Shown: positions 43,995 through 59,119 of the stretch, piece after piece
Position numbering within the stretch: the stretch's first letter is position 1
How the letters are laid out: each line of letters opens with the position of its first letter
Source of the DNA: an uncultured Chloroflexia bacterium
Lineage (GTDB): Bacteria > Chloroflexota > Limnocylindria > Limnocylindrales > CSP1-4
Assembly (NCBI GenBank): GCA_963764975.1
Contig: CAVXUF010000002.1
Span: forward strand, 75,894 to 139,893
DNA: 64,000 nucleotides
Direction of reading: 5' to 3'
Notes under the pieces: generated by a model
Database searches by the model: none
The model's input: only the letters and a program-made list of their open reading frames with translations
Told to the model about the DNA's origin: nothing
Program-made: the position numbers and the translations under genes

Positions 43995-44848
43995 ACAGCG
44001 GCGGCGGGACGCTGTACGTCGTCGCCACGCCGATCGGCAACCTGGCCGATGTCACGCTCCGCGCGATCGAGGTCCTCGGCGCCGTGCCGCTCATCGCCGC
44101 GGAAGACACGCGGCACACCGCGCGGCTGCTCGCTCGACATGGGATCCGGACGTCGATGACGAGCTTCCACGCGCGCAGCGGCCCGGCTCGGCTGGAGTCT
44201 CTCCTCGCGCACCTGCGCGCGGGGACGGATCTCGCCCTCGTGACCGACGCGGGCACGCCCGGCGTGAGTGACCCGGGGGCGGAGCTCGTGGCGGCGTGGG
44301 CGGCGGAGGGGGGCGTCGTCGTCCCGCTCCCGGGCGCATCAGCGGTCCTGGCGGCCGTGGCCGCGGCCGGCGTCGCTGGTCCGCGATGGGCGTTCGAGGG
44401 GTTCCTCCCGCGCACCGGTCGTGAGCGTCGCGAGCGGCTCGAGCGGATCGCGGCCGACCCGCGCGGCGCGGTGCTGTTCGAGGCCCCGGGCCGCGTGGCC
44501 GCGACCCTCCGCGACCTGGCCACCGCATGCGGGCCATCGCGGCGCGGGGCGGTGTGCCGGGAACTGACCAAGATCCACGAGGAGATCGTCCGCGACGAGC
44601 TCGGGGCGCTTGCCGCGGCGGCGGACGATGGCGCGATCCCCGCGCGTGGGGAGTTCGTGCTGGTCGTGGGCATGCGCGAGTCGTCCGAACCGTCGGCAGC
44701 CGACGCCGAGGCGCGTCTGACAGCGGCGCGCGCCGCTGTCGAGCGCCTCGTCGGATCGGGGGTCGCTCGTGGGGACGCCGCTCGGCGAGTGGCGGCTGAC
44801 ACGGGCTTGCCGCGGCGACGCCTCTACGATCCGGCCCCATCGCGGTAG
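43991..44848 (+). CDS. rsmI: 16S rRNA (cytidine1402-2'-O)-methyltransferase
   Basis: GTLYVVATPIGNLADVTLRAIEVL....LIAAEDTRHT..; tetrapyrrole-methylase fold. Confidence 0.9.
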   Translation: MNSGGGTLYVVATPIGNLADVTLRAIEVLGAVPLIAAEDTRHTARLLARHGIRTSMTSFHARSGPARLESLLAHLRAGTDLALVTDAGTPGVSDPGAELVAAWAAEGGVVVPLPGASAVLAAVAAAGVAGPRWAFEGFLPRTGRERRERLERIAADPRGAVLFEAPGRVAATLRDLATACGPSRRGAVCRELTKIHEEIVRDELGALAAAADDGAIPARGEFVLVVGMRESSEPSAADAEARLTAARAAVERLVGSGVARGDAARRVAADTGLPRRRLYDPAPSR

Positions 44849-44859
44849 CATCCGACTCG

Positions 44860-46725
44860 ATGCCCGACACGATCGGCCGCTGGGCGCCGTCCGGCGAAAG
44901 ACCCCGATTCGAGCGGCTGCGTGATCGTGCCCGGCGTCCCATCGACATCGTGGCCCTGGGAAGCTTGCTCACGGAGCAAGTCGTCCACATCGCCCACCAT
45001 CCGTCAGCGGGTGGGCAAGGGTCGATCCCCATCCGCTCGATGACGGCCTCGATCGGTGGAGGCGCGGCAAACGTCGCCGCGATCGGGGCCCGGCTGGGCG
45101 CGCGCACGATGCTGGTCAGCGCGATCGGGGACGGCCCGCGCGCCCACGAGATCCGCGATCGACTGGCGGACGCCGGCGTCGACGTCTCGCTTCTCGCGAT
45201 CCGCCCGGGTTGCGACGCGGACCTCCTGGTCCTGCTGTGCGACGTCGCAGGGGATTGGGTCGCGCTGGAGCAACTCGATCCGGACCTTCGGATGAGACAG
45301 GACGACTTGCCGGGACGCGAGATGCTGACGAAGGCGACGTGGCTACATGTCGATGGCTACGCGTCCTTCACGGCGGGCGATCCGGCGCTGGTCGACGCCG
45401 CTGTCGAGCGCGCGCGAGCGGCCGGATGTCTCGTCTCGGTCGATGCGGCGACCCCGTCCGCCACCGCGGAGCCCGGGTACATCCGGTCCCTGTTCGCCCG
45501 GGCCGATGTCGTCTTCGCCAATATCGTCGAAGCGTCGGCGCTCACATCGATCGCGCCCGAGGACATCGATGGGATGCTCACCGCGCTCCTTGACCTCGGC
45601 CCCGCGGTGGTGGTCCTCAAGGCCGGTGGTGCGGGGTCCATCGTCGCCTCAGCGGAGGGTCGAGCCCGGATCGCGGCTATTCCGACCGTCGTCATCGACA
45701 CTCTGGCGGCCGGCGATGCCTATGTCGCCGCGACGCTCGTCGGACTCGCGGAGGGTCGGACGCTCGTGGACGCCGCGCGGCGCGGCGCTGCCGCAGGGTC
45801 GGTGGCCTGTCGGACGCCAGGTTCCCAGGGTGGCATCTTCGATGCCGCCGCTGCCGAGGCCATGTCAGCGGCGCCCGGACCGGACGACGTCGAGGACCGC
45901 GTCATCCCGCTCGGGATGGCCCGATCGCCGGTTCGAGTGCGGCCGGTAGCTGATCTACGGGGCTTGCCGGATGGCGAGCTGCCGCGGTTCGCCCTGGTCC
46001 CGGGGAGCGAACGACGCGTGGAGCAGATCGCAGAGCGCCTCGCCGACGTACGCGTCATCGCCCACGATCGCGAGTTCCTGGCCATCACCGGCGACCTTGA
46101 TGGGATCCCGATGATGGCCTGCTCGACGGGGATCGGCGGGCACGGGGTCAGCCTGGTCGTCGACGCGCTGGGAGCCCGCGGCGCCGACACGTTCATCCGG
46201 GTGGGCGTCACTGGCGCGCTTCAGGACCGGATGCGCACCGGAGATCTGGTCGTCGCGTCGGCGGCCGTGCGGCTCGACGGCACCAGCGAGTACTACGCGG
46301 ATCTCGCCTACCCGGCGGTCGCGGACCATGCCGTCACGGTTGCCCTCGTGGCCGCCGCCCAGTCAAGGCAGGCGGTCGTCCATGTCGGGATCGGGTTCAC
46401 GGCATCGTCCTTCTACGCCGGGGAGGGGATCCCTGCGTTCCGCGGGTTCCGGTCGGCGTCGATGGCCGGGATCGAGGCCGAGATGCGGGAGATCGGGGTT
46501 CTCGACCAGGACACCGAGACTGCGACGCTGTTCACGGTCGCCCGCCGTCGCGGCTGGCGGGCCGGTCGGGTCAACGCGGTGGTGGACGACCGGACGGCCG
46601 CCGGCTACGACCCGACGGGAGAGCCGCTCGCCATCGAGACCGCGCTTGAGGCGGTCCGACGGCTCACGGCCTGGGACGAGGCCGGGCGCACGTGGCGTGC
46701 CGGTCAGCCTGGGGCGGAACGATGA
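44860..46725 (+). CDS. Fusion protein: N-terminal PfkB-family sugar/nucleoside kinase + C-terminal divergent PNP/UDP-family nucleoside phosphorylase domain
   Basis: Single uninterrupted 621-codon ORF. The N-terminal half has IGGGAANVA and DTLAAGDAY (PfkB signatures). The C-terminal half has CSTGIGGHG, IRVGVTGAL and DQDTETATLF, which align with STGIGCPS, IRVGTSGA and CSEMEAATLY of the neighbouring phosphorylases. Confidence 0.75.
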   Translation: MPDTIGRWAPSGERPRFERLRDRARRPIDIVALGSLLTEQVVHIAHHPSAGGQGSIPIRSMTASIGGGAANVAAIGARLGARTMLVSAIGDGPRAHEIRDRLADAGVDVSLLAIRPGCDADLLVLLCDVAGDWVALEQLDPDLRMRQDDLPGREMLTKATWLHVDGYASFTAGDPALVDAAVERARAAGCLVSVDAATPSATAEPGYIRSLFARADVVFANIVEASALTSIAPEDIDGMLTALLDLGPAVVVLKAGGAGSIVASAEGRARIAAIPTVVIDTLAAGDAYVAATLVGLAEGRTLVDAARRGAAAGSVACRTPGSQGGIFDAAAAEAMSAAPGPDDVEDRVIPLGMARSPVRVRPVADLRGLPDGELPRFALVPGSERRVEQIAERLADVRVIAHDREFLAITGDLDGIPMMACSTGIGGHGVSLVVDALGARGADTFIRVGVTGALQDRMRTGDLVVASAAVRLDGTSEYYADLAYPAVADHAVTVALVAAAQSRQAVVHVGIGFTASSFYAGEGIPAFRGFRSASMAGIEAEMREIGVLDQDTETATLFTVARRRGWRAGRVNAVVDDRTAAGYDPTGEPLAIETALEAVRRLTAWDEAGRTWRAGQPGAER

Positions 46726-47561
46726 CGGATCGCGACTTCGTCCATCGCGGGTTCGGCGGGGCCCTCCGACCCGGGGACATCGCGCCGTTGGTCGTGCTGG
46801 CGGCCGATCGCGAGACGGTTCGGTCGTTGACGGCCGCCTGGACCGACGCCCGGCGCGTGGCGGACCACTACGCCTTCGAGGTGTGGGCCGGACGGGTCGG
46901 CGAGGTCGCGCTCGCGGCCTGTTCGACCGGAACGGGGTCCCCGGGGGCCGCGATCGCGATCGAGGAACTCGCCGGACTCGGTGCCCGAACGCTCGTGGGG
47001 ATCGGGGCCACCCGAGCGCCGCTCGGTGACGGTCCCGTCGGGCGGATCATCATCGCCGATGGTGCGGTTCGCGGCGACACTGCGAGCGCCGGTTATGCCC
47101 GCGAAGGCGTGCCGGCCACGCCGGACGTCGAGGTCGTACTGGCCGCGGAGGTCGCGGCTCGCGGTACCGGGGTGGTCATCGTGCACGACGTCGTGGCGGA
47201 CCTCGACGCCGCGGCTCACGCGACAGGCGGGCGGCTCGCGGCCGGGGCGCCGCGGTCCCGCGCGATCGCGGCCACCATCCGGGCGACCGGGGCCATCCCT
47301 GTCGATGGCTCTCCGGCGACGCTGCTCGTGATCGGCGCCATCCACGGTCTCCGTACGGGGTTCATCGGCGCCGATCCATGGCGACCGGACGGGACCCCGG
47401 ATCCCGAGGGCCTACGCCACGCCGCCATGATCGCAACGACGACGCTCCTGACGCTCGATGCCTGGGATCGCGGTCGGGATGGGGTGCCTACCTCGTTCGC
47501 GGAACGGATGGCCGCCATGCCACCGCAAGGCGGGCATCGGACCCAGCCGACCGGCAGCTGA
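46722..47561 (+). CDS. Degenerate PNP/UDP-fold protein (phosphorylase-like, key motifs lost)
   Basis: CSTGTGSPGAAIAIEEL and VGIGATRA retain the fold signature, but the GDPxR phosphate motif and the E-M-E motif are absent. ATGA overlap with the fusion gene. Confidence 0.6.
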   Translation: MTDRDFVHRGFGGALRPGDIAPLVVLAADRETVRSLTAAWTDARRVADHYAFEVWAGRVGEVALAACSTGTGSPGAAIAIEELAGLGARTLVGIGATRAPLGDGPVGRIIIADGAVRGDTASAGYAREGVPATPDVEVVLAAEVAARGTGVVIVHDVVADLDAAAHATGGRLAAGAPRSRAIAATIRATGAIPVDGSPATLLVIGAIHGLRTGFIGADPWRPDGTPDPEGLRHAAMIATTTLLTLDAWDRGRDGVPTSFAERMAAMPPQGGHRTQPTGS

Positions 47562-47606
47562 CACCCCCGGATCGCGAGGTCCTGGCGGGTGTCCGACCCG
47601 GTCCAC

Positions 47607-47635
47607 TTGAAGGCAACCTGAAAAACCACTAGCAA
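47607..47635 (+). promoter_or_regulatory. Candidate promoter in an AT-rich patch (TTGAAG-17-TAGCAA)
   Basis: Locally AT-rich ~40-bp island in an otherwise GC-rich context, ~200 nt upstream of the ECF S-component ATG. Confidence 0.3.
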
Positions 47636-47835
47636 ATTGTGATGTGGCCCGCTACCGTACCGTCAGGCGCGGTCGGCCAGGGCCGCCGCGTTCGTGCACC
47701 GGGACTGCGGCGGAGAGCCCAACTCGCTGTCGTAATCCTCGGATGGGTCGCGATCACCCGGATGCACACGAGATCATTCGGCGATCTCGTCCAGAGGCGG
47801 CGAGACGCCTGTGCAGAGGGAGGTTCGGAACGACC

Positions 47836-48534
47836 ATGACAGCGGCCTCAGTCACCCGCGCGGCATCGCGGATCCCGTTGACGTACGTCGTCACGTTGGT
47901 CCCCGTGGCGGCGGCCCTCAACATCGTCGGCAGCACCATCAACAACGCGCTGAAGCTCCCGACGTTCCTTGACATGATCGGCACCGCCGTGGCCGCGATC
48001 GTGCTGGGACCCTGGTGGGGTGCCCTCGTCGGCGTCATCACGAACGTCGGCGGCTCGTTCATCAACGGACCGATCGGGATCCCGTTCGCGCTGGCCAACG
48101 TCGCCGGCGCCCTCATCTGGGGCTACGGCATCCGGTCGTGGGGTCTCGGATCGAACCTGCCCAAGTTCTTCCTGCTCAATATCATCGTGGCGCTCGTCGT
48201 GTCCGCCGTCGCGGCCCCGATCGTGATCTTCGTGTTCGCTGGGGCCACGGGTCACTCGTCCGATGCCATCACGGCAGCCTTCGCACTGGCCGGCAATGAC
48301 CTGATCACCTCGGTGTTCGCGTCCAACGTCATCGTGTCCCTCGCCGACAAGATCATCGCGGGCTTCGTGGCCCTCTCGATCATCGCGGCGCTCCCGGCCA
48401 ACCTCACGTCCGGGCTGACGTTGCCCGCGGCGACGGGGATGCGCGGCGTGATGCTCGCCGTGGGCGGCATCGTCATCGGCGTCGTGCTGGTGCTGGTGTA
48501 CGTGCTCATCCTGGCGCCCGCGCCGGCCGCCTGA
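47836..48534 (+). CDS. ECF transporter substrate-specific (S) component, specificity unknown
   Basis: 232-aa six-helix-type membrane protein (..LNIVGSTINNALKLPTFLDMIGTAVAAIVLGPWWGALVG..) followed by ecfA-ecfA'-ecfT. GAGGGAGG upstream of ATG 47836. Confidence 0.75.
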   Translation: MTAASVTRAASRIPLTYVVTLVPVAAALNIVGSTINNALKLPTFLDMIGTAVAAIVLGPWWGALVGVITNVGGSFINGPIGIPFALANVAGALIWGYGIRSWGLGSNLPKFFLLNIIVALVVSAVAAPIVIFVFAGATGHSSDAITAAFALAGNDLITSVFASNVIVSLADKIIAGFVALSIIAALPANLTSGLTLPAATGMRGVMLAVGGIVIGVVLVLVYVLILAPAPAA

Positions 48535-48561
48535 CCGACCACCGGAACGAAGGAGACTCGC

Positions 48562-48789
48562 ATGAGCGCACCCGAATCCAACGACGCCCGGACGGTCGGA
48601 CCCCGCGAGGGGCTCGGCGCCGGGATCATCGCCCTGGGCATCCTCTCGATCGCCCTGCCGGGCGTCGTCGACCAGCTCCCTTCGGTGGCCGGTGGTGGCA
48701 GTGCCGCCGCCGTCCTGTACGGGATGAGCGTGTTGATCGGCGTCTTCGTGATCATCGCCGGGGTCATGACGTTCTTCGTCAAGGACTGA
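48562..48789 (+). CDS. Small two-helix membrane protein inside the ECF operon
   Basis: 75 aa with two hydrophobic helices. GAAGGAG lies 7 nt before the ATG. No family recognised. Confidence 0.55.
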   Translation: MSAPESNDARTVGPREGLGAGIIALGILSIALPGVVDQLPSVAGGGSAAAVLYGMSVLIGVFVIIAGVMTFFVKD

Positions 48790-48818
48790 CCCTCGGCGCA
48801 CCAGTCGCACGCGACCGC

Positions 48819-48852
48819 CACCCCCGCTCCGGGACCCCCACCGGAGCGGGGG
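48819..48852 (+). other. Intra-operon stem-loop between the S-component module and the ATPase genes
   Basis: ACCCCCGCTCCGG-gaccccca-CCGGAGCGGGGGT: a 13-bp perfect stem with no U-tract. Confidence 0.4.
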
Positions 48853-48886
48853 TCGCCACGCCCATCCCCGCGAACCCGAGGACACC

Positions 48887-49729
48887 ATGGCCGATGAGCC
48901 GATCATCTCCATCGCCGACATGGGCTTCACGTATGCCCAGGCAGAACGCCCGGCCCTGAGCGGTATCGATCTCGAGATCCATCGTGGCGAGTACGTGGCG
49001 ATCATGGGTCTCAACGGTGCCGGCAAGACGACGCTCGGACTCTGCCTGAACGGGATCATCCCGCACATGCTCATGGGCGAGCAGACCGGGTCCGTCCGTG
49101 TCGACGGCAAGGATCCGAGCACGGTCGTCGTCCGGGAGATGGCCCGGACGGTCGGCATGGTCTTCGATAACCCCGAATTCCAGATGAGCCAGATCACGGC
49201 CGCCGAAGAGGTCGCTCTGGGGCTGGAGAACCTTGGAGTCCCGTCCGACGAGATGCCGGCCCGGATCGCGGCAGCGTTGCAGCTCGTGGGCCTCGAGGGG
49301 TTCGAGGAGCGGGCCCCGATGGGCCTGTCGGGCGGGCAGCAGCAGCGACTCGCCATCGCCTCGGTGCTGGTGATGCGGCCCTCGATCCTGTTCATGGACG
49401 AGCCCACGTCGAACCTCGACCCCCTCGGCAAGGACGACATCTTCGAGATCGCCCGCCATCTCAACCGCGAGGAGGGGATGACCGTCATCGTCGCGGAGCA
49501 CGAGGTCGAGGTCCTCGCTGAATACGCCGACCGGGTCGTCATCCTGCATGAGGGACGGATCGCGATGCAGGGCCCCCCGGCTGAGGTGTTGCGTCGCGTT
49601 GACGAGCTCGATGCCCTCGGTCTCCGCGCGCCGCAGGTCACCCAGTTCGCCCACGCCCTGTCCGGCTCGACGCCGGACCTGCCCGTGACACTCGACGCCA
49701 CCATCGGGTGGCTGGGATCGCGAGCATGA
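48887..49729 (+). CDS. ecfA1: ECF transporter ATPase component
   Basis: GLNGAGKTT, LSGGQQQR, ILFMDEPTSNLD. Confidence 0.9.
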   Translation: MADEPIISIADMGFTYAQAERPALSGIDLEIHRGEYVAIMGLNGAGKTTLGLCLNGIIPHMLMGEQTGSVRVDGKDPSTVVVREMARTVGMVFDNPEFQMSQITAAEEVALGLENLGVPSDEMPARIAAALQLVGLEGFEERAPMGLSGGQQQRLAIASVLVMRPSILFMDEPTSNLDPLGKDDIFEIARHLNREEGMTVIVAEHEVEVLAEYADRVVILHEGRIAMQGPPAEVLRRVDELDALGLRAPQVTQFAHALSGSTPDLPVTLDATIGWLGSRA

Positions 49730-50544
49730 CCGGACCCGCGATGATCAGCGTGGACGAGGCGCGGTACGTCTACCCGCACGGGAACGTCGTCGCGCTCGAG
49801 GGCCTGTCGATCGAGATCGGCTCGGGCGAACTCGTCGGCGTCATGGGCCAGAACGGATCCGGCAAGACCACGTTCACCAAACTCCTCAACGGCCTGTTGA
49901 AGCCGACGTCCGGCCGGGTGGTCGTGGACGGTCGCGATACGGCCGAGCACAGCGTCCAGGAGATGGCCGGTCACATCGGGTATGTCTTTCAGAACCCGAA
50001 CCACCAGCTGTTTGCGTCCACGGTGGCCGAGGAACTGGCATTCGGGCCGAGGAACATCGGGTGTTCGCCCGAGGAGGTCGACGAGCGGGTGGCGGATGCC
50101 GTGGCGTTCTTCGGTCTCGAGGCCATCCTGGGACTGCACCCGTACCGGATCAGCTTCCCGCTCCGCAAGGTCGTCGGAATCGCCTCGATCTACACGATGC
50201 GACCCAAGGTCTTCATCCTCGACGAGCCGACCACCGGCCAGGATCACCGGACCACGAGCGTCATCGACCGCCTGATCGTGCGTCTCGCGGATCGCGGGGA
50301 TACCGTCGTTTGCGTGTCGCACGACATGCCGCTCATCGCCCACGTCGCCCGTCGGGCGATCGTGATGTGGAACGGGCAACTCATCGCGGACGGCACGCCG
50401 CGTGAGGTGTTCGCCGATACGGCGGCGATGGAGCGCACGCACCTCACGCCGCCTCAGATCACCCGGTTGTCGACCCGGATGCCGTCGCGGGCGGGACGAC
50501 CGGCCGCGCTGTCCGTTGCCGAACTGGTGGAGGAGACTCGCTGA
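49726..50544 (+). CDS. ecfA2: ECF transporter ATPase component
   Basis: GQNGSGKTT, Walker B VFILDEPTTGQD, H-loop VSHD. The signature position is degenerate (ISFPLRKVVGIA). ATGA overlap with ecfA1. Confidence 0.88.
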   Translation: MTGPAMISVDEARYVYPHGNVVALEGLSIEIGSGELVGVMGQNGSGKTTFTKLLNGLLKPTSGRVVVDGRDTAEHSVQEMAGHIGYVFQNPNHQLFASTVAEELAFGPRNIGCSPEEVDERVADAVAFFGLEAILGLHPYRISFPLRKVVGIASIYTMRPKVFILDEPTTGQDHRTTSVIDRLIVRLADRGDTVVCVSHDMPLIAHVARRAIVMWNGQLIADGTPREVFADTAAMERTHLTPPQITRLSTRMPSRAGRPAALSVAELVEETR

Positions 50545-51437
50545 TGCAAGGCGTCAACGTCTCGGTCACGCATGTCCGCGGAACGTCCTGGCTCCACCGA
50601 CTGAACCCGATCTCCAAGCTCGCCTGGGTGCTCGCCGTCATCCTGTTCGCGTTCTCGTCGTACAACCCGTTCCCGCTCTTCGCGATCGCGATCGGCGGGT
50701 TCCTCCTCGGCGTCTCGGCGGGGATCGCGCGCCCCCTGCTACGGATCCTGATCGTCTTCGCGCCCGTCACCGCGTCGATGATCGTCATCCAGACCATGGC
50801 GCCGGCGACGTGCTCGAACACATGCACCGCGGCGGCCCAGCTCGGGCCCTTCACGCTCTACCAAGAGGGGATGTCGCACAGCCTCTCGCTCGTCTCGCGT
50901 GTCCTCGCGATGGAGATCATCGCGCTCGGCGTCCTGATGACGACGCACCCGTCGGACTTGTTCGCGGCCTTCGCCAAGCTGCGCGTGCCGTACATCCTCA
51001 ACTTCATGGTGTCGATGACCCTCCAGCTGATCCCGGTCCTGCAGCGCGAGGTCTCGGTCGTCCTGTCGGCGCAGAAGTCGCGGGGCATGAAGAGCAAGGG
51101 CTTCGGGTCGGTCGTGCCGTCGTTCGTGCCCGTGTTCGCGGGCGCGTTCGAACGCGTCCAGCAACTGTCGATCAGCCTGGAATCACGCGCGTTCGGGTCG
51201 GCCGGGTCCAAGACCTCGTATCGCCAGGTCCGGTTCGGGCCGATCGATGCCGCGATCGCGATCGTCGGACTCGCCGCGGGAGCGATCGGGGTGTATCTCG
51301 GGCTGACATTGTGGAGCGTCGAGCTGACACCCTCGCTCGTGCTGCCCGTCGCGCTGACCCTCGTGGTCTTCCTGCTGGCGGCGGTGATGTTCTTTGCCGT
51401 CCTGGCCGCCGCGATCCTGGCGATCGCGCGGGCCTGA
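50544..51437 (+). CDS. ecfT: ECF transporter transmembrane (T) component, CbiQ family
   Basis: ..SWLHRLNPISKL.. N-terminus, polytopic, ..ARAFG.. coupling-helix motif (SRAFGS); TGATG junction. Confidence 0.85.
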   Translation: MQGVNVSVTHVRGTSWLHRLNPISKLAWVLAVILFAFSSYNPFPLFAIAIGGFLLGVSAGIARPLLRILIVFAPVTASMIVIQTMAPATCSNTCTAAAQLGPFTLYQEGMSHSLSLVSRVLAMEIIALGVLMTTHPSDLFAAFAKLRVPYILNFMVSMTLQLIPVLQREVSVVLSAQKSRGMKSKGFGSVVPSFVPVFAGAFERVQQLSISLESRAFGSAGSKTSYRQVRFGPIDAAIAIVGLAAGAIGVYLGLTLWSVELTPSLVLPVALTLVVFLLAAVMFFAVLAAAILAIARA

Positions 51438-51441
51438 CCCG

Positions 51442-52215
51442 ATGACGATCCAGGCCGCGCAGCACCACATCGCGCTGCGCCGCGGCGACGTGGGTCGGTA
51501 CGTGCTGCTGCCCGGCGACCCGGGACGGGTCGAGACGATCGCCCGCCATTTCGACGATCCGGTGTTCGTCGCCGCGAACCGCGAGTACGTGACGTGGACC
51601 GGCACGCTCGACGGTGTGCCCGTGGCCTGCACATCGACCGGGATCGGTTGTCCATCGACCGCGATCGCCGTGGAGGAGCTCGTCGCGATCGGTGCCGACA
51701 CACTGATCCGGGTCGGGACGTCCGGAGCGATCCAGCCCGACATCGCCACCGGCGAACTGGGGATCATCACGGGCGCGATCCGCGACGAAGGCACGAGCCA
51801 CCACTACCTGCCGGCCGAATTCCCCGCGGTCGCCGACATCGACGTCACGGCCGCCCTGCGCGCCGGCGCCGTCGCGACCGGCCAACCATACCGCCTCGGG
51901 ATCGCCCAGTCGAAGGACTCGTTCTACGGCCAGCATGCCCCCGACCGCATGCCGGTGGGTCCCGAGCTTCGTCGGCGCTGGGCAGCCTGGACCGCCGGAG
52001 GGGCGCTGTGCTCCGAGATGGAGGCCGCGACGCTCTATGTCGTGGCGTCGACGCTCCGGGTGCGGGCGGGTGGCGTGATGCTCATCTTCGGCAACCTCGG
52101 GGGCAGGCAGCTGACGCCCGAGGAACGGGCCGCGGGCGACATCGAGCGCGCGATCGAGGCGGCGATCGCCGGTCTGCGCGTGCTGATCGCCGCGGATCGC
52201 GACGCGGCGCGATGA
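51442..52215 (+). CDS. Uridine-phosphorylase-like nucleoside phosphorylase (PNP/UDP family), copy 1
   Basis: LLPGDPGR, TSTGIGCPSTAIAVEEL, IRVGTSGA, SKDSFYG, CSEMEAATLY. Confidence 0.85.
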   Translation: MTIQAAQHHIALRRGDVGRYVLLPGDPGRVETIARHFDDPVFVAANREYVTWTGTLDGVPVACTSTGIGCPSTAIAVEELVAIGADTLIRVGTSGAIQPDIATGELGIITGAIRDEGTSHHYLPAEFPAVADIDVTAALRAGAVATGQPYRLGIAQSKDSFYGQHAPDRMPVGPELRRRWAAWTAGGALCSEMEAATLYVVASTLRVRAGGVMLIFGNLGGRQLTPEERAAGDIERAIEAAIAGLRVLIAADRDAAR

Positions 52216-52982
52216 ACGACGACGTCATGCACCACATCGCGCTGCGCCGCGGCGATGTCGGGCGGTACGTGCTGCTCCCCGGCGACCCCGGCCGGTGCGA
52301 ACGCATCGCCACGCGCTTCGACGATGCGAGGCTCGTCGCCAGGCATCGCGAGTACGAGACGTGGACCGGCACGCTCGGTGGTGTCCCGGTCTCGGTGACC
52401 TCCACGGGGATCGGCTGCCCGTCGACGGCGATCGCCGTCGAGGAACTGATCATGTGCGGCGCCGACACGTTCATCCGCGTGGGGACTGCGGGCGGGATGC
52501 AGCCCGGCATGACCACGGGCGAACTCGCCAACGTGACGGCCGCCATCCGCGACGAGGGCACGACCGAGCACTACCTGCCCATGGCGTTCCCCGCGATCGC
52601 GGACCTCGACGTCGTCCTCGCGCTGCGTGAGGCCGGTCGGCGTACGGGTGCCACGGTCCGCGAGGGCATCTCGCAGTCCAAGGATTCCTTCTACGGGGAG
52701 ATCGAACCGGGCCGGATGCCTGTCCGAGACCGGCTCGAGGAGCGCTGGCAGGCATTCATCGCCGGCGGCGCGATCTGCTCCGAGATGGAGGCCGCGGCGA
52801 TCTTCATCATCGCCTCGATCCATCGCGTGCGGGCCGGCGGCCTCATGGCGTGCGTGGGCAACCCGGACCTCACGCCGGCGGAGGTCGAGGCGTCGATGGC
52901 CACCTTCGATCTCGACGAGGTCATCGATACCGCCGTGGAAGGGCTCCGCGTCCTCATCGAGCGTGATAGCGCGAGGTCCTGA
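52212..52982 (+). CDS. Uridine-phosphorylase-like nucleoside phosphorylase (PNP/UDP family), copy 2
   Basis: Same motif set (LLPGDPGR, TSTGIGCPSTAIAVEEL, IRVGTAGG, SKDSFYG, CSEMEAAAIF); ATGA overlap with copy 1. Confidence 0.85.
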   Translation: MNDDVMHHIALRRGDVGRYVLLPGDPGRCERIATRFDDARLVARHREYETWTGTLGGVPVSVTSTGIGCPSTAIAVEELIMCGADTFIRVGTAGGMQPGMTTGELANVTAAIRDEGTTEHYLPMAFPAIADLDVVLALREAGRRTGATVREGISQSKDSFYGEIEPGRMPVRDRLEERWQAFIAGGAICSEMEAAAIFIIASIHRVRAGGLMACVGNPDLTPAEVEASMATFDLDEVIDTAVEGLRVLIERDSARS

Positions 52983-54223
52983 TCGCCATCGACGACGACA
53001 TCCCGTTCGATCCGGTCGATCCGCGCTTCATCGCGAATCCCTATCCCGCGTATGCCCGTGTTCGCGAGTCGACGGCGGTCTGGCACCCCGACGGCGACCA
53101 CCTCTGGTACCTGACCCGCCACGCCGACGTCCACGCGGCCTTCCGCGACCGTCGCCTCGGGTCGAACTTCCTCCACCGCTATACGCCCGAGGAGCTGGGG
53201 CTGGCGCCGGGCATCCCGGTCTGGCGCGACCCGCGCTGGGAGGACTTCGCCGCGTTCGAGCGCTGGGAGCTGCTCAACCTCGAGCCGCCGGTCCACACGC
53301 GGTTGCGTCGGCTCGTCACCGAGGCGTTCACGCCCCGGACCGTCGAAGGGATGCGGACGAGCATCGTCGAGCGGGCTCGAGCGCTGCTGGCACCGGGACG
53401 CGAGGCCGGGTCCATCGATCTGGTCAACGACTACGCCCAGCACTTCTCGCTCGGCATCATCTGCGATCTCATCGGCGTCGCACCGGACGATCGCGAGACG
53501 ATCAAGCGCCTGTCGGACGATACGGTGGCGATGTACGAGCCGGCCCCGTCCGACGCACAGCGGATCGCCTCGAATGCGGCCGCCGGCGACTTCCGCCGCT
53601 ATCTGATCGACGTCATCGCCGTCCGGCGGCGTCGACCAGGCGACGACCTCCTGACCGCGCTCATCGACGCCACGGTGGACGGCGAGCGGCTGACCGACGA
53701 CCAGATCGTGTCGACCGCGATGGTCCTGCTGATGGCCGGCCACGAGGCCACGGTCAACGCGACCACGAACGGCATTGCCGCGCTGGCCGCGGACCCGGAG
53801 CAGTGGCGCCTCATCCGTCGCGGCGAGGTCACCCCCAGGGCCGCGCTCGAGGAGATGCTGCGCTACGACCCGCCGCTCCAGTGGTTCGAGCGCTGGGTGC
53901 TCGACGATGGGTTCCGTGTCGGCGACGTCGAGATCCCGGTGGGGTCGCGGGTCGCCCTCGTGCTCGCGGCCGCGAACCGGGACCCGCGCAAATACGACCG
54001 ACCGGACCGGTTCGACATCCGTCGGGCCGACACGACCCACCTGTCGTTCGGTGGCGGGATCCACTTCTGCATCGGCGCCCCGCTCGCCCGACTGGAGCTG
54101 GAGACGACCCTCACCGAGCTGGCACGATCCGAGGAGGAGCTGGTGATCATCCCGCCGACGGTCCGACGCCCGACCTTCCAGTTCCGCGGCTACGAGCGCC
54201 TCGAGATCGCGCTCTCGCGCTGA
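52979..54223 (+). CDS. Cytochrome P450 (start codon non-canonical or unresolved)
   Basis: I-helix LLMAGHEATVNA, ExxR EMLRYDPP, heme loop FGGGIHFCIGAPLA. The P450-like N-terminus (..DIPFDPVDPRFIANPYPAYARVRE..) begins right after an in-frame TAG at 52967. The first in-frame ATG/GTG/TTG is only at 53303, so CTG 52979 (CTGA overlap with the upstream stop) is proposed. Confidence 0.8.
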   Translation: MIAIDDDIPFDPVDPRFIANPYPAYARVRESTAVWHPDGDHLWYLTRHADVHAAFRDRRLGSNFLHRYTPEELGLAPGIPVWRDPRWEDFAAFERWELLNLEPPVHTRLRRLVTEAFTPRTVEGMRTSIVERARALLAPGREAGSIDLVNDYAQHFSLGIICDLIGVAPDDRETIKRLSDDTVAMYEPAPSDAQRIASNAAAGDFRRYLIDVIAVRRRRPGDDLLTALIDATVDGERLTDDQIVSTAMVLLMAGHEATVNATTNGIAALAADPEQWRLIRRGEVTPRAALEEMLRYDPPLQWFERWVLDDGFRVGDVEIPVGSRVALVLAAANRDPRKYDRPDRFDIRRADTTHLSFGGGIHFCIGAPLARLELETTLTELARSEEELVIIPPTVRRPTFQFRGYERLEIALSR

Positions 54224-55413
54224 TCCCCGGGCCGTCGTTCGGTCAGGACGGCCGTTGCCGCCGCGACGAACGCAAGCGGCAGGAGGATCAGGCGGGCGTC
54301 GTCCGCCCCTGCCGCGGTGATCACGGACCCGGCCAGCGCCGCACCGACCGCGATCCCGATGGCCGTCGCCGAGACGAGGATCGAGAACGAGGACGTTCGC
54401 GAGTGCGCGGGCGTGACCTCGGCGACGAACGCGTTGGACTGGATGAACGTGGCGGCGATCGCGGCACCAGACACGATCGACGCGATGAGAAATGGGGTGT
54501 AGCCGTCCACGAGCGCCGAGGGGATCACGCCGGCTGCATAGACGAGCATCGCGATCGTGAACCGGCGTCGGACCGGCATCCGCCAGGTCCGCGCCCCGAC
54601 CACGATCGCCCCGATGAGACTCGCGCCCGAATTGACGACGTAAACCAGCGCGGCCCCCTCGGTGAGGCCGAGGCTGGCGCAGTACGCGAGTTGCAGGACC
54701 TGCACGGCACCGAGCGCTCCGCCGAGCGCCCCCACCGACAGCAGCACCCCGGATCCGGCAGGAAAACGGAGTCGCCATGTGGGCCCACCGGCGCCCGGAT
54801 GGGGAGCCGGGGCAGGCAGGCTCCAGCGAGACGTGACCCCGAACGCGCCGAGGATCAGCAGGGACATGGCGACGACGATCGGCAGACCCACGAACCCCAC
54901 GGTCGCGAGCAGCGCGACGGCCGCGGGGCCGATGAGGAAGGACATCTCGTCGTTGATCGATTCGAGCGCCTGCGCCGAGTCCAACCCGGCGATCCGCTCG
55001 TGGAGTGCCGCCCAGCGCGCCCGCGTGAAGGCGCCGATGTTCGGCTGCGTTGCCCCGACGAGCGCGGCGAGGGGGATGAGCAGCGGCGTCGCCCCGAAGG
55101 CCAGCAGACTCGCGACCGCGAGCGCGCCGAACAGTCCGGACGCGATAGCCAGGATCCGGGCCAGTGGCAGCTGGCCGCGACGGTCCGCGACCCGACCGAT
55201 GACCGGCCCGACGATCGCGGTCGCCACGGCGTACGCCCCGGCAGCGGCCCCGCCCAGGGCATAGCCCGTCTCCGGGTTCGCCGAGGCTGCCGATGCCACG
55301 AAGGCGACCGAGAGCATCGCCATCGGGGCGCGACCGACGAGCCCGAACGCGATGAGCGGCGGGCCACCGGATTGCGCCAGTGGCCCGTGGAACGCGGCGA
55401 GTGGCCGACGCAC
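54190..55413 (-). CDS. MFS transporter
   Basis: 407 aa, ~12 predicted helices, ..GRVADRRGQ.. loop 2-3 motif. GTG start 7 nt after the upstream stop. The 3' end overlaps the P450 3' end by 34 bp. Confidence 0.8.
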   Translation of the reverse strand: MRRPLAAFHGPLAQSGGPPLIAFGLVGRAPMAMLSVAFVASAASANPETGYALGGAAAGAYAVATAIVGPVIGRVADRRGQLPLARILAIASGLFGALAVASLLAFGATPLLIPLAALVGATQPNIGAFTRARWAALHERIAGLDSAQALESINDEMSFLIGPAAVALLATVGFVGLPIVVAMSLLILGAFGVTSRWSLPAPAPHPGAGGPTWRLRFPAGSGVLLSVGALGGALGAVQVLQLAYCASLGLTEGAALVYVVNSGASLIGAIVVGARTWRMPVRRRFTIAMLVYAAGVIPSALVDGYTPFLIASIVSGAAIAATFIQSNAFVAEVTPAHSRTSSFSILVSATAIGIAVGAALAGSVITAAGADDARLILLPLAFVAAATAVLTERRPGDQRESAISRRS

Positions 55414-55420
55414 GAGTCGG

Positions 55421-56416
55421 CTAGTACATCGTCGTGCGCGTCAGGTGGTGCGGCCAGAAGGTCGCGTGATACGTCTTCCAGAGCCGGTAGTCGATCTGCG
55501 GGATCACCAGCTGGCGGTCGGCAGGTCGGCGATCGTTGATCGCGCTGGTCAGCAGGGCGGTGGCGTACACCGTGTGGGCGCGCAACTCGATCTCGTCGAG
55601 GCTGTCCCGCTCGATCATGACCCCGCCGTTGATCCGGGACTCGAGGTCATCGGTGTACTCGGTGATGCCCATCAGGCGCAGTGCCACCGGCACGATGTAG
55701 TCCGCGAACGCGGTCATCCGTGACAGGTCGCGGATGCCCGGTTGGCCGAGGTGGACCCAGGTGGCGTGCAGCGACCACAGGCACAGCTGGGCGAGCTTGT
55801 AGAACTGGACGCGATGGCCGTCGTAGACGCTGCTGTCCTCGAAGCGCGGGAAGTCCGCCAGCAGGCGTTCGAGCATCCCGTTGCCGTCCGCGTACATCGC
55901 CCGGTCGCATGTGGCCGCCCAACGATGGAAGCGGCCACCGAAGCGATCGACGAGGGTCGACCCCATGGTATTGAGGATCTCCGCGCGTTCGTCGAGCATC
56001 GGCATCTCGATGGTCCCGGCGAAGATCGCGGCGAGGTCGTTGCGGGTCACGGTCGCGAGCCACTCGCCGTCGAAGATGGGCTGCCCCGCGCTCCACGCGC
56101 GATGCCAGCAGGCGAGCTTGGCTTCCGAGTCCACGTACCGACGACCCTGGTAGTCCACCTCGAATTTGACCGACGTCGCGAAATCGGTGAAAGCGAAGTT
56201 GAGCGCCGACTCGAGCAACACGAGATCGGTCAGGACGTCGGGGTCCTGGCCGAAGTCGAAGAGGAACGATCCGTCGTTGAGACCGAATTCCTCGTAGGCC
56301 ATCCACCCGGCGACGCGCTGGATCCCTTCGTCCGAGGTGCGGACGTTCCGCGAGGCCTCGATCACCGGCAGCGTCGATGACAGCACCTGACTGTCCCATC
56401 GGTCGATCGCGTGCAT
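55421..56416 (-). CDS. DUF2419 / queuosine-salvage (Qng1-like) family protein
   Basis: ..VQFYKLAQLCLWSLH.., ..FADYIVPVALRLMGI..Y...L...I.....I...S..EIELRAHTVYA.., C-terminal ..IDYRLW......HH.TRT..Y. These parallel the conserved blocks of the family as I remember them. GGAGGG lies 3 nt before ATG 56416; the longer ORF to 57460 is antisense to rbsK. Confidence 0.72.
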   Translation of the reverse strand: MHAIDRWDSQVLSSTLPVIEASRNVRTSDEGIQRVAGWMAYEEFGLNDGSFLFDFGQDPDVLTDLVLLESALNFAFTDFATSVKFEVDYQGRRYVDSEAKLACWHRAWSAGQPIFDGEWLATVTRNDLAAIFAGTIEMPMLDERAEILNTMGSTLVDRFGGRFHRWAATCDRAMYADGNGMLERLLADFPRFEDSSVYDGHRVQFYKLAQLCLWSLHATWVHLGQPGIRDLSRMTAFADYIVPVALRLMGITEYTDDLESRINGGVMIERDSLDEIELRAHTVYATALLTSAINDRRPADRQLVIPQIDYRLWKTYHATFWPHHLTRTTMY

Positions 56417-56587
56417 GAACCCTCCGTACAGGCCGGACCGCCGGCCACTCCGGGCCGCCGGCCACATCGCCGACGACCGCCTCACGATACGGGAGCGCGG
56501 AGGTCCCGGCCGGGCGAGCGTGCAGCCGGTTTGCGGCCGGCGTCCCCGGACCGGCACCATGGAACCTTCAGCGACGCAGGAGGGCAT

Positions 56588-57521
56588 GTGACGGATCGAC
56601 CGGGGATCGTCGTCGTCGGAAGCACGATGATCGACCTCATCGCCTACGCGGACCGGCTGCCGGACGACGGCGAGACGGTCGTGGGGAGCGCGTTCCAGTC
56701 CGGGTTCGGGGGCAAGGGGGCGAACCAGGCGGTGGCGGCAGCCCGCTTCGGCGCCGAGGTCGCGATGGTCAACGCCGTCGGCGATGACGACTACGGGTCC
56801 GCCACGATCGGCAACTTCGAGCGCGAGGGGATCGCCACCGACGATGTCATCCGCGTGTCCCGGGTCATCCGGCGTGGCGCCGATCTGGGTGGACGGGCGG
56901 GGGAGCAACCGGATCATCATCGTGCCCGGCGCGAACCTCGCGGTGCCGCCGGACCTGGCGACTGCGGCCGTCTCGCGGCGACGCCCGGCGGTGGTCATCG
57001 GGCAGTTCGAGATCCCGCAGGCCGTGACCGCGGCCGGGTTCGCCGCCGGCCGGGCTGTCGGGGCGATCACGATCCTCAATCCAGCCCCGGCCGCGGCCAT
57101 CGAATCGTCGCTGCTCGCGGTCACAGACTGGCTGGTCCCCAACGAGACCGAGTTCGCGCTCCTCGCCGGGCACCCACTCGGCGACGATCCCGCTGCGGAG
57201 GAGCGGTCCATCACGGCCTTTGCGGCCGTGGTCGGGACGTCGGTCGTGGTCACGCTGGGTGCCCGCGGCGTGGCGATCCTGCCGCTCGGCGGGTCGCTCG
57301 TACGGGTGCCGGCCCCGGTCGTCGACGCGGTGGACACGACCGGCGCCGGCGATGCCTTTGTCGGCGCGTTCGCGGTGGGGCTCGCGATGGGCTGGACGCC
57401 AGAGCGCGCCGCGCACCTCGGCTGTCTGGCCGCCTCGGACAGCGTGACCCGGCCGGGCACCCAGCTGTCCTATCCCGATCGAGACCGGGCGGCCGATCTG
57501 CTGGCCACCGCCGTCGCATAG
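56588..57521 (+). pseudogene. rbsK: Ribokinase, reading frame interrupted by one extra base (pseudogene or assembly indel)
   Basis: The N-terminal part (GTG 56588 after AGGAGGG; ..VVVGSTMIDL.., GGKGANQAVAAA) is in frame 2. The remainder (..SSGVAPIWVDGRGSNRIIIVPGAN.., NETE, VDTTGAGDAFVGAF) is in frame 0. The switch is at the CCCGGG run 56859..56864. Total length is 3n+1. Confidence 0.75.
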
Positions 57522-57536
57522 GGCCGATCGGAGAGC

Positions 57537-57575
57537 GGCCACGACGGCGCGGGAGGGGGACGCGCCGCCGTGGCC
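57537..57575. terminator. Hairpin between convergent rbsK and ssb (possible bidirectional terminator)
   Basis: GGCCACGACGGCGCG-ggaggggga-CGCGCCGCCGTGGCC: a 15-bp stem with one mismatch and no clear U-tract. Confidence 0.3.
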
Positions 57576-57592
57576 CGGGACGTGCAGCCTGG

Positions 57593-58066
57593 TCAGGCGG
57601 CGGCCTCGATATCGTCCTCCTCGTCGTCGTCCGGATCGGATGCCGACGCGACCTCGGCACCCACCGGGATGGGCTCATCGGCCGGGGCCTCCCCGAGCGC
57701 CTCGGCCTGGGCCACGAGGGAGTCGGCCGCCTGCTGGGCCTCGTAGTCCTTCTTCTTGCGGCCGCTGAGCATCTCCACGTGGGCCGCCACGATCTCGGTC
57801 CGCCAATGTCGCTTCCCGGCGTCGTCATCCCAGGTGCGCGTCTGGATCCGGCCTTCCACCGCGACCTGCTGGCCCTTGCCGAGGTAGCGTCCGGCGATCT
57901 CGGCCAGCCGATCCCAGGAGACGACGTTGTGGTACTCGGCCTTCTCCTTGCCGGCACCGAGGAACTCGTTGCTGGCCACGGTGAAGGTCGTGACGACCTT
58001 GCCACTGGCCAGGCTGCGCATCTCCGGGTCGCGAGTGAGGCGCCCGGTCAACAGGACCTTGTTCAC
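57593..58066 (-). CDS. ssb: Single-stranded DNA-binding protein
   Basis: OB-fold N-terminus VNKVLLTGRLTRDPE.R....G..V..F.VA.N and an acidic C-terminus. AAGGAG lies 8 nt before GTG 58066. Confidence 0.9.
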   Translation of the reverse strand: MNKVLLTGRLTRDPEMRSLASGKVVTTFTVASNEFLGAGKEKAEYHNVVSWDRLAEIAGRYLGKGQQVAVEGRIQTRTWDDDAGKRHWRTEIVAAHVEMLSGRKKKDYEAQQAADSLVAQAEALGEAPADEPIPVGAEVASASDPDDDEEDDIEAAA

Positions 58067-58290
58067 GGTCCGTACTCCTTCTGGTCGGCCGGATGCTCCG
58101 GTCTCGACCCTGCGTCTCCGGCGGGATGACGGGGTCAACCTAGCAGCGAGCGCTCGCCTGGCAGGTATCTGGCAGTTCACCGCCGCTTATCCAGACGACG
58201 GCATCGCCGACCGGGGCAGCCTGCTCTTGTCGGGCCATCCGGCGGTCCCTATCCTCACGGCCATCGTGGCAGCAGGACGGAGGATGAATC

Positions 58291-58881
58291 GTGGATTGGG
58301 AGAACGCGATCTTCGGGCCGGGCTGGGTCTGGTCGATGCTCAGCATCATCTTGGTGGTCGGCTCCCTGTTCGGGCTCTACCGCCAGCTGCGCCTGCAGCA
58401 CACCCAGACGGCGATCGACCAGATGGCGGCATTCACGGAAGAGGCGTACAGCGAGCAGATGCAGCGCTACGGACTCGACGCGATGATCGCGTTGCGCGAC
58501 CACGACGACCCGGCCGACATCCCCGAGGGCGCCGTCCTCGGCCTCGGTGACTTCTGGGACAACTTCGCCACCCTGGCTCGGAGTGGTCACCGCGATCCGT
58601 CCCTGCTCTGGCAGTCGAATTCGGCCTCGCCGCAGATCGTCTGGTGGTGGATCGCGCCGTTCGTCCGTAAGGCGCGGACCGACGATACCCTCGGTGTTCC
58701 CTCGTATGTCGACTTCGAATGGCTCGTTGGGGTACTGGCCGAGATGGACCGAGCTGGTGGTCGGCAGGTCATCACCCGGGAGCGGGTCATGGCCGATCTG
58801 GACCGCCTCATCAGGCTCCAGCGGGACCTGATTCGCACCATGCATGCGTCAAGATCGGAGCGACTGGTCCTGGGCGACTGA
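58291..58881 (+). CDS. Hypothetical N-terminally anchored membrane protein
   Basis: 196 aa, one TM (WVWSMLSIILVVGSLFGLY), high third-position GC. GGAGGATGAATC precedes the GTG start. No family recognised. Confidence 0.55.
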   Translation: MDWENAIFGPGWVWSMLSIILVVGSLFGLYRQLRLQHTQTAIDQMAAFTEEAYSEQMQRYGLDAMIALRDHDDPADIPEGAVLGLGDFWDNFATLARSGHRDPSLLWQSNSASPQIVWWWIAPFVRKARTDDTLGVPSYVDFEWLVGVLAEMDRAGGRQVITRERVMADLDRLIRLQRDLIRTMHASRSERLVLGD

Positions 58882-59119
58882 TCCGCGACGCTGCCCAACG
58901 CCTCCGGACCCATGTCGAGCTTCGCCAGCGCGTCCTGCTCACGGCGCCGACGACCCACGAGCGATCGGCGGACCTTCCGCTGCCTCGGGTTCCCGCCACG
59001 AGCGGCCAGCGTGTTCGAGCCGACCGGCGCACGCGGAGGGCCGGTGTACGCTACGACGGCCCGTCGATCGCCGACGGGTCCGTGCGTCCGGCGCCGACGC
59101 ATCGAGCGAGAAGGTGCCG

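Follow-up and report, generated by a model that had tools for sequence, protein, structure and literature searches.

Between rsmI and ssb, the window analysed here, i.e., a stretch of 64,000 nucleotides from an uncultured Chloroflexia bacterium (contig CAVXUF010000002.1), carries an island of 13 adjacent genes (44860–57521) for a PfkB kinase–phosphorylase fusion protein, a degenerate phosphorylase-fold paralog, an energy-coupling factor (ECF) importer (five genes), two uridine phosphorylase (UP)-like proteins, a cytochrome P450, a major facilitator superfamily (MFS) transporter, a Q_salvage (DUF2419) protein resembling Qng1, and a ribokinase-like PfkB kinase (RK). Since the GC content of the window is about 70%, genes were called via third-codon-position GC frame plots and lists of open reading frames (ORFs), and the deduced proteins were assigned to families by profile searches against Pfam and NCBIfam. 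All 13 genes of an initial annotation were directly recovered at their coordinates, and all of its family assignments, including DUF2419/Q_salvage, held, while its interpretation as a queuosine-type salvage route was supported only in part. We consider it slightly better than an even chance (probability of roughly 0.55) that the region represents a modular ribonucleoside-scavenging island, composed of three modules and located in a variable slot between rsmI and ssb.

The plus-strand genes from the ECF S component to the P450 (47839–54223) follow each other closely, and the translational coupling proposed for them in the initial annotation proved to be real when the junctions were read directly from the sequence. 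An S component of 231 aa (47839–48534) is followed by a small two-helix membrane protein of 75 aa without a family match in Pfam or NCBIfam (48562–48789), the ECF ATPases A1 (48887–49729; ABC_tran; TIGR04520, 257 bits) and A2 (49726–50544; ABC_tran; TIGR04521, 227 bits), a T component of the CbiQ family (50544–51437; PF02361, E = 3e-27), the first and second UP-like genes, G8 (UP1, 51442–52215) and G9 (UP2, 52212–52982), and the P450 gene (52979–54223). ATGA overlaps were found at A1/A2 and G8/G9 as well as between the two genes preceding the operon (G1/G2), a TGATG junction at A2/T, and CTGA at G9/P450, with gaps of 4 nt between T and G8 and 27 nt between the S component and the small protein. 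The very short gaps claimed for the remaining junctions did not stand at one place, namely the spacer of 97 nt between the small protein and A1.

This 97-nt spacer contains a hairpin (48821–48852, plus strand) with a perfect 12-bp GC stem (CCCCCGCTCCGG/CCGGAGCGGGGG) and an 8-nt loop (GACCCCCA), which may render the ATPase/T part independent of the S-component part in expression or mRNA stability. The same hairpin is present in the closest relative (locus L099, c. 5838–5869), and loci L102 and L022 harbor one at the same place with another stem sequence and a CCCA-containing loop. The 5' leader of the ECF operon (47626–47838, plus strand, c. 210 nt) is also conserved with L099, blastn homology resuming at 47626. 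It folds no better than shuffled controls (z of -1.2); the leaders of different lineages revealed no obvious common motif, and more distant loci look unrelated. A search of Rfam gave no match at E ≤ 1 for window positions 43800–58400 and none at E ≤ 0.5 for five related loci, and promoter and terminator scans resulted in nothing above background.

Genomic contexts were gathered for three proteins, namely the fusion protein G1, the Qng1-like protein, and the P450. ECF, UP, P450, MFS, Qng1-like, and PfkB genes were found linked in other genomes as well, so that an absence of linkage, which would have refuted the reading of the initial annotation, does not apply. With at least 20 independent loci sharing this gene set, the arrangement is far beyond chance. 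In L099, whose P450 is 95% identical, the gene order is rsmI, S component, small protein, A1, A2, T, UP, UP, and P450, followed in convergent orientation by the MFS and Qng1 genes. A metagenome-assembled genome (MAG) of Ca. Limnocylindrales (L102, L103) carries the full island in a gene order identical to that of the window. Loci L101, L104, and L105 possess S component, (small protein), A1, A2, T, P450, and PfkB, with no phosphorylase and no Qng1, this unit being located at an unrelated chromosomal site in L105, and in L014–L018 (Qng1-like protein 82–85% identical) the rsmI–ssb slot holds only the P450, a convergent Qng1, and a divergent PfkB gene. PfkB–UP–P450 operons lie beside Qng1 in L029 and L050, with no ECF genes. 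The slot thus carries different subsets in different relatives, i.e., G1 and G2 (L011, L013), P450/Qng1/PfkB, ECF–P450–PfkB (L101, L104), or ECF–UP–UP–P450/MFS–Qng1 (L099). In three of these loci, a protein of 427–456 aa with an N-terminal membrane region is encoded between the kinase gene and ssb (L014, 7552–8835; L017, 7503–8870; L018, 7498–8868); it revealed no match in Pfam or NCBIfam and no counterpart in the window, and comparison ruled out that it is a homolog of the MFS transporter.

Comparison of window and L099 revealed dN/dS values of 0.02–0.09 for all ten island genes compared (Qng1-like and kinase genes left out) and of 0.06–0.16 for the housekeeping neighbors NadE and RsmI, so that the island genes are under strong purifying selection. 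Together with the linkage, this indicates that the island is real, functional, mobile or differentially retained, and modular.

A metagenome scan using an alignment of the Qng1-like proteins yielded 80 further loci (51–63% identity; locus GC content of 0.45–0.73), in which tblastn within 5 kb of Qng1 identified a ribokinase-like PfkB gene in 28 cases, usually divergent and 77–200 bp away. UP homologs were detected in 25 of these loci, an MFS gene directly downstream of Qng1 in 23, an adjacent S component in seven, and a P450 in five. In an unbiased census, neighboring ORFs were clustered and annotated with Pfam for 83 Qng1 loci, resulting in PfkB (39 loci), IU-nucleoside hydrolase (27), PnrA/Bmp-type nucleoside ABC transporter (14–26), UP (25), MFS (23), Nuc_deoxyrib_tr (18), LacI regulators (14), Vut_1/QPTR (10, each 16 bp downstream of Qng1), and DeoC (8).

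The varying contents of the rsmI–ssb slot would also fit unrelated pathways that are merely juxtaposed, the ECF–P450–PfkB genes handling a non-nucleoside (ribosylated or vitamin-like) compound by import, oxidation, and trapping by phosphorylation, and the Qng1–MFS and UP genes being ordinary independent salvage genes. An ECF importer next to a ribokinase-superfamily kinase is the classic design of vitamin salvage (ThiW/ThiM, PdxU/PdxK), which this unit matches; it occurs alone in three contexts, one of them at the other chromosomal site, and about 77 of the 83 Qng1 loci lack a P450. Nevertheless, we regard mere juxtaposition as unlikely: the UP genes sit inside the ECF–P450 operon, where their stop and start codons overlap, Qng1 and the S component are immediate neighbors in seven loci, in either orientation, the PfkB–UP–P450 operons of L029 and L050 stand beside Qng1 without ECF genes, and the whole set appears in the same order in Ca. 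Limnocylindrales.

With S, T, and two A components in one operon, the importer belongs to the group I (dedicated) ECF systems. The best and sole NCBIfam match of its S component was NF045596 ('CD3073 family') with 107.7 bits at a cutoff of 180, and PF12822 was matched with 21.4 bits at a cutoff of 30.7; judging from these profiles, the protein is likely a distant relative of the CD3073 family, on which a literature search found no publication. A grouping with characterised vitamin transporters, considered in the initial annotation as an argument against nucleoside uptake, was not seen for any of them. The same five-gene module was identified in L022, L099, L101, L102, and L104, and L105 harbors S component, A1, A2, and T, with no small protein called. 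The 75-aa membrane protein always follows the S component (62–97% identity in L022, L099, L101, L102, and L104) and showed a dN/dS of 0.06 between window and L099. S-component homologs directly adjoin Qng1 in the seven metagenome loci already mentioned and stand beside the P450 in L099, L101, L102, L104, and L105.

Regarding the two phosphorylase genes of the operon, G8 is a Q-type UP-2 uridine phosphorylase, reaching 289 bits against TIGR01718 (cutoff of 280) and displaying all phosphate-binding Arg residues and the FYGQH motif. Its best solved relative is the biochemically characterised UP of S. pyogenes (PDB 3QPB, E = 4e-78), to which G8 and G9 are 53% and 51% identical, respectively. G9, an E-type UP-2 paralog with the motif FYGE, falls below the same cutoff (263 bits) and has Glu in place of the uracil-discriminating Gln, whose role in uridine phosphorylases has been described (PMC7271239). 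All 14 loci with two UP genes (the window, L033, L039, L049, L050, L055, L056, L060, L067, L073, L074, L099, L102, and L103) combine one Gln-type (FYGQH) with one Glu-type (FYGE/FYAE) gene. This fixed pairing implies two fixed specificities and suggests that the Glu-type UP-2 has been conserved as a paralog specific for another base.

The last gene of the operon encodes a CYP107P-like P450 (PF00067) with all signatures of the family, i.e., the heme motif FGGGIHFCIG, ExxR (EEMLR), and the I-helix motif AGHEAT. Its frame contains no ATG, GTG, or TTG before 53303, and the GTG or ATG start codons of its orthologs align with a CTG at 52979, which overlaps the stop codon of G9; this defect, like the kinase frameshift described below, had been overlooked in the initial annotation. 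The orthologs (72–95% identity) number more than 120 clusters. In ten of ten independent contexts, the P450 occurred with this ECF system and/or the ribokinase-like kinase, and in L105 it is still 75% identical at a locus where the ECF subunits have drifted to 42–48%. It tracks the ECF and kinase genes more tightly than Qng1. For this reason, a P450 converting queuine to preQ1 was demoted as the main explanation; the literature searched contained no link between a P450 and queuine or queuosine.

The P450 is an orphan enzyme for which oxidative dealkylation would be the most plausible reaction class. Its best relative in PDB is CYP107P2 of Streptomyces avermitilis (8YHN; E = 9e-100, c. 47% identity by eye), which has the same heme-proximal pocket residues but is itself an orphan (PMC11214959) and lacks the charged insertion found in the B-C loop of the window enzyme. 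Precedents are the O-dealkylation performed by CYP107P3 (PMC11214959) and the carbohydrate-demethylating P450s of marine Bacteroidetes (PMC6292453), the latter resembling the present case in that a P450 is part of a sugar-utilisation locus, but without any sequence relationship to the window P450. A BBE-like FAD oxidase (FAD_binding_4 and BBE) is encoded directly upstream of the ECF–P450–PfkB operon of L105 (5120–6505), and in the Limnocylindrales locus such a gene precedes the island by c. 4 kb (L102, 1–603); the enzyme may take part in the pathway, or its position may be coincidental.

Downstream of the P450, and convergent to it, the minus strand carries the MFS transporter gene (54190–55413, PF07690) and, separated from it by 7 nt, the Q_salvage/DUF2419 gene (55421–56416), downstream of which the MFS gene is co-transcribed. 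The match of the deduced protein to DUF2419, on which the initial annotation had made its reading depend, was clear (PF10343, 167.5 bits at a cutoff of 25, E = 6e-49), and more than 2,800 homologs were found. It belongs to the same family as the characterised Qng1/QNG1 of Sphaerobacter thermophilus (StQng1) and human (PMC9881137) and aligns end to end with StQng1 (PDB 7U07/7UK3) and human QNG1, though at low identity to StQng1 (phmmer E of c. 1e-39 for 7U07) and, unlike these, embedded in nucleoside-catabolic neighborhoods.

To compare active sites, the functional positions with their roles reported by Hung et al. 2023 (PMC9881137) were mapped onto about 205 sequences of the clade (StQng1 numbering, unless marked as window). 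The features shared with the characterised enzymes comprise the catalytic Asp and Lys of the HhH fold, D231 and K199 (window D239 and K207), both invariant, and the ribose-stacking pair F75/Y232 (window F76/Y240), of which Y232 is invariant and the F75 position is F in 189 and Y in 15 sequences. The carboxylate of the C-terminal Tyr is invariant as well (window Y331, the last residue), and recognition of 7-deazaguanine is kept throughout the clade by the base-edge Asp D298, the sandwiching Trp W302, and an aliphatic residue at 203 (window D309, W313, and L211); E267 and H316 are also conserved. The pocket for the side chain of queuosine (Q), W48/Y93/W94/W299, is replaced (window G49, S97, E98, and Y310): in the clade, W48 is mostly G, the Y93 position is S/T/A in 204 and the W94 position E/D in 194 of the 205 sequences, W299 is Y/F, and S206 is an invariant Trp. 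As for the phosphate ligands, K233 corresponds to I241 of the window and is I or V throughout the 205 sequences, R80 is conservatively exchanged (window K84), and Q306 is H. In the proton relay, which was described as strictly conserved, D69 is S70 in the window (D in 10/205) and D207 is S215 (variable), with N72 kept.

From these residues, the clade is a distinct divergent subfamily, whose members should act as HhH-type N-glycosidases on a guanine-like base. They were not classed as isofunctional Qng1 because three defining features fail, namely side-chain pocket, phosphate ligands, and proton relay. Without the lysine that binds the phosphate, these enzymes may act on a nucleoside, and as QPTR adjoins Qng1 in ten loci, a 7-deazaguanine substrate (queuine or preQ) stays the leading candidate. 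The initial annotation had proposed a queuosine-type substrate and action on a 5'-monophosphate; the catalytic core required for this is present, but with Q pocket, proton relay, and K233 lost, such an activity is not established, and specificity for queuosine is plausible. Its statement that an MFS transporter has no role in such a route is outdated, since Quaiyum et al. 2024 described MFS, PF12822 ECF, and QPTR genes as qng1 neighbors and candidate Q-precursor transporters (PMC11130926).

Divergently from the Qng1-like gene, the ribokinase-like PfkB gene (56588–57521, plus strand) is split over two frames, each with a PfkB match, owing to an additional T at 56858 that intact orthologs lack. 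Removing this T restores a protein of 310 aa, collinear with the orthologs of 309–311 aa. The repaired kinase reached 274.5 bits against the ribokinase equivalog TIGR02152 (cutoff of 299.65; ortholog of L101, 290.7 bits) but 32 bits against the pseudouridine kinase model; it keeps the ribose-contact and catalytic motifs GGKGANQ, Glu143, and Asp255 (N14 being M), and its best solved relatives are all ribokinases. The simplest reading of its sequence would be the phosphorylation of ribose to ribose-5-phosphate, i.e., ribose recycling, rather than the nucleoside 5'-phosphorylation included in the route of the initial annotation. Such a ribose kinase is in line with hydrolysis by the Qng1-like enzyme and with nucleoside hydrolases encoded at other loci, and it fits a 'Q kinase' poorly.

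This bears on a dedicated queuosine salvage pathway, in which Q would be imported by the ECF or MFS system, 5'-phosphorylated by PfkB, and cleaved as Q-5'-monophosphate by Qng1 into queuine and ribose-5-phosphate, with phosphorylases and P450 as accessory functions. Since the kinase for Q is still unidentified (PMC9881137), PfkB could be the 'unidentified kinase' of Hung et al. 2023. Besides the PF10343 match (E = 6e-49) and the conserved deazaguanine-recognising residues D298 and W302, the divergent Qng1/PfkB pair as the commonest neighborhood feature (39/83 loci) agrees with this pathway, as do the ten loci in which a gene of Vut_1/QPTR, an established family of Q-precursor transporters, lies 16 bp downstream of Qng1, and the published candidacy of PF12822 ECF and MFS neighbors of qng1 (PMC11130926). 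We nonetheless hold it to be doubtful. K233 is I or V in all of the c. 205 clade members, the Y93, W94, and W48 pocket and the D69/D207 relay are replaced, G8 and G9 resemble genuine uridine phosphorylases, and in L101, L104, and L105, Qng1 is missing beside the P450 and ECF genes. Moreover, the kinase has the size of a ribokinase and retains all motifs for ribose contact, and the closed pocket of the ribokinase fold should not admit a bulky nucleoside. PfkB as a Q kinase was demoted due to this ribokinase-like sequence; as our literature search found no 'queuosine kinase', the idea is kept at low probability.

The frameshift and the missing P450 start, with a second possibly truncated gene nearby (cytidylyltransferase, 58844–59596), would be expected if the island were a decaying remnant in this genome. 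This is very improbable in our view, since dN/dS is 0.08 for the P450 and low for the ten genes compared with L099, and both kinase halves are 68–82% identical to intact orthologs, with no internal stop in either half or in the P450. The window is otherwise nearly free of broken genes. A CTG start combined with translational coupling is possible, and the extra T may be a single-base assembly error, because sister long-read metagenome assemblies (ERZ2503xxxx) carry split purA, purD, ssb, and ECF ATPase genes (L011, 16119–18799; L017, 1963–7260; L101, 8666–9100), which indicates indel errors.

Upstream of the ECF operon, G1 (44860–46725, plus strand) encodes a fusion of an N-terminal PfkB kinase (residues 53–324, E = 8e-41) and a C-terminal UP-like phosphorylase (PNP_UDP_1, residues 376–585, E = 2e-28). 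According to alignment, the C-terminal domain keeps the equivalents of R30/R48/R91/E198, the FYGQ base loop is deleted, and TIGR01718 gave 205 bits, i.e., below the cutoff. The PfkB domain is without the ribokinase Lys (motif GGGAANV), and matches to ribose-1-phosphate kinase models were weak (NF053626, 74 bits) and far under their cutoffs. The adjacent G2 (46722–47561, plus strand) is a UP-fold paralog (PNP_UDP_1, 29 bits; TIGR01718, 102 bits) in which every phosphate-binding Arg, the Thr, and the ribose-binding Glu are gone, which bears out its earlier description as degenerate.

Only about six full-length homologs of G1 were found among 5.8 billion clusters, and a scan of genome contigs with the fusion gave only distant PfkB genes of Planktophila-like genomes (24–30% identity). 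A G2 ortholog directly follows the fusion gene in L011, L012, and L013, and the order in relatives is rsmI, fusion, dead phosphorylase, Ca2+/H+ exchanger, and ssb, with no other island gene. This exchanger (Na_Ca_ex) was rejected as an island member, as it is an ordinary Ca2+/H+ exchanger of the chromosomal backbone. Comparison of the window with L099 by blastn revealed a clean 2.79-kb insertion (44836–47625) consisting of exactly G1 and G2, and in about 90 other loci, no Qng1 gene had the pair as a neighbor. G1 and G2 are thus a strain-specific add-on outside the conserved island set, so that the 13 genes do not form one set as initially annotated but comprise a separate 2.8-kb cassette missing from the closest relative. 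In six loci, PfkB and UP genes beside Qng1 stand in an order that parallels the domain order of G1. In L013, a LOG/Lysine_decarbox protein (nucleotide 5'-monophosphate nucleosidase-like family) is encoded directly upstream of the fusion (80–643).

Read as a ribonucleoside-scavenging island, the locus would work as follows. In module B, a single translationally coupled operon (47839–54223), the ECF importer would take up nucleosides, and the two UP-2-type phosphorylases would convert them to base and ribose-1-phosphate, the Gln-type enzyme acting on uridine and the Glu-type enzyme having an altered base preference; the P450 would perform an oxidative tailoring, most likely by dealkylating or demethylating a modified nucleoside or else its sugar or base. 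In the convergent module C, the Q_salvage glycosidase would free a guanine- or 7-deazaguanine-type base, with queuine as the leading candidate and a nucleoside likelier as substrate than a 5'-nucleotide, accompanied by the co-transcribed MFS permease, and the divergent ribokinase-like PfkB would trap the freed ribose as ribose-5-phosphate. In module A, the fusion protein possibly links phosphorolysis of a nucleoside to a kinase step, in which either the nucleoside or the resulting ribose-1-phosphate is phosphorylated, and the dead paralog G2 is probably a structural partner.

Several points weigh against this scheme, which builds on demonstrated gene content, coupling, conservation, purifying selection, and active-site residues, and in which every substrate and the P450 reaction are predicted. 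With the kinase frameshifted and the P450 without a canonical start, part of it may be inactive in this genome. The island contains no ferredoxin or ferredoxin reductase as redox partner of the P450, whose heme-proximal pocket residues, being those of CYP107P2, are hydrophobic (PMC11214959), and no tgt or que genes were found within the 64-kb window. UP yields ribose-1-phosphate and not free ribose, so that a ribokinase is needed only together with a ribose-supplying hydrolase, and the ECF–P450–PfkB units of L101, L104, and L105, without any glycosidase, fit a non-nucleoside substrate.

A further and rather tentative possibility is that ECF importer, P450, and ribokinase-like kinase form the core of an undescribed route, in which an alkylated RNA-derived ribonucleoside would be imported and dealkylated by the P450, and its ribose trapped. 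Candidates for the substrate would be nucleosides methylated at the 2'-O or at the base, and also queuosine/queuine, whose N-dealkylation to preQ1 would, by analogy, be an aerobic counterpart of the radical-SAM enzyme QueL. Optional front ends might be a new Q_salvage subfamily hydrolysing a nucleoside instead of a nucleotide, and a Glu-type UP-2 switched toward a 4-amino pyrimidine, comparable to the Asn-to-Asp exchange in purine nucleoside phosphorylase.

Among known systems, the indirect queuine salvage of Clostridioides difficile, as cited in PMC11130926, comprises QrtT (ECF S component), QueK (nucleoside hydrolase), and QueL (radical-SAM queuine lyase). It has in common with the window a dedicated PF12822-type ECF importer grouped with a glycosidase and another enzyme that tailors the base, but it differs in that QueK is an IU-nucleoside hydrolase and not a Q_salvage-fold glycosidase, that a radical-SAM lyase takes the place of an O2-dependent P450, and that the S component of the window matches the uncharacterised CD3073 family. 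Classical nucleoside clusters (udp/deo, rih-rbsK, PnrA/Bmp) likewise combine a transporter, N-glycosidic cleavage (phosphorylase or hydrolase), and ribokinase, and their families were seen in the Qng1 census; they use ABC-SBP or NupC/NupG transporters in place of an ECF importer and differ from the window by its paired Gln/Glu-type UP-2, Q_salvage glycosidase, and P450. PsuK/PsuG follows the same logic of PfkB kinase and glycosidase acting on a modified nucleoside, though with an unrelated glycosidase family, and the kinase of the window looks like a plain ribokinase. The archaeal pentose-bisphosphate pathway (nucleoside phosphorylase and PfkB-type ribose-1-phosphate kinase) resembles G1 in pairing PfkB with UP, but no ribose-1,5-bisphosphate isomerase was seen nearby. 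As the MFS and PF12822 ECF associations of qng1 were already known (PMC11130926), the description of the gene mix as unprecedented was overstated; the literature searched contains no description of the linkage to kinase, UP, and P450 genes, of the remodelled Qng1 subfamily, or of UP genes in Gln/Glu pairs.

Apart from the island, the window encodes a dcw cell-division cluster, aconitase, the glycine cleavage system, two Opp systems, nadE, rsmI, ssb, a GGDEF-HD protein, and purA. The dcw cluster (9954–14108) includes FtsQ, a DUF1290 protein, FtsA, and FtsZ; as many Actinomycetes are without FtsA, its presence at 70% GC may be of use for taxonomic placement. A DUF4760 gene (58291–58881) and a cytidylyltransferase-like ORF (58844–59596) lie between ssb and the GGDEF-HD gene (58291–59861), which directly adjoin each other in relatives. 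In the latter ORF, only the first 124 of the 217 profile positions are covered, and the coding frame then switches near 59550. The region thus resembles a second variable insertion of small size, one gene of which may be truncated. Two adjacent DsrE_2 ORFs on the minus strand (18156–19383), one of 137 aa covering only profile positions 4–50 and one of 249 aa with the full C-terminal domain, may be a duplicated pair or a disrupted gene.

Altogether, the island is common in uncultured bacteria of several lineages (locus GC content of 45–74%), the named relatives being MAGs of Actinomycetota and Chloroflexota (Ca. Limnocylindria), and its genes are conserved like housekeeping genes. It gives testable candidates for what the large remodelled Qng1 branch cleaves and what a CD3073-type S component imports. 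Furthermore, it bears on the questions of whether bacteria use a queuosine kinase or hydrolyse the nucleoside and recycle the ribose, and of the role of fixed Gln/Glu UP pairs and a near-invariant orphan P450 inside a nucleoside operon. If true, the participation of a P450 in the salvage of nucleosides or queuosine would be new biochemistry.

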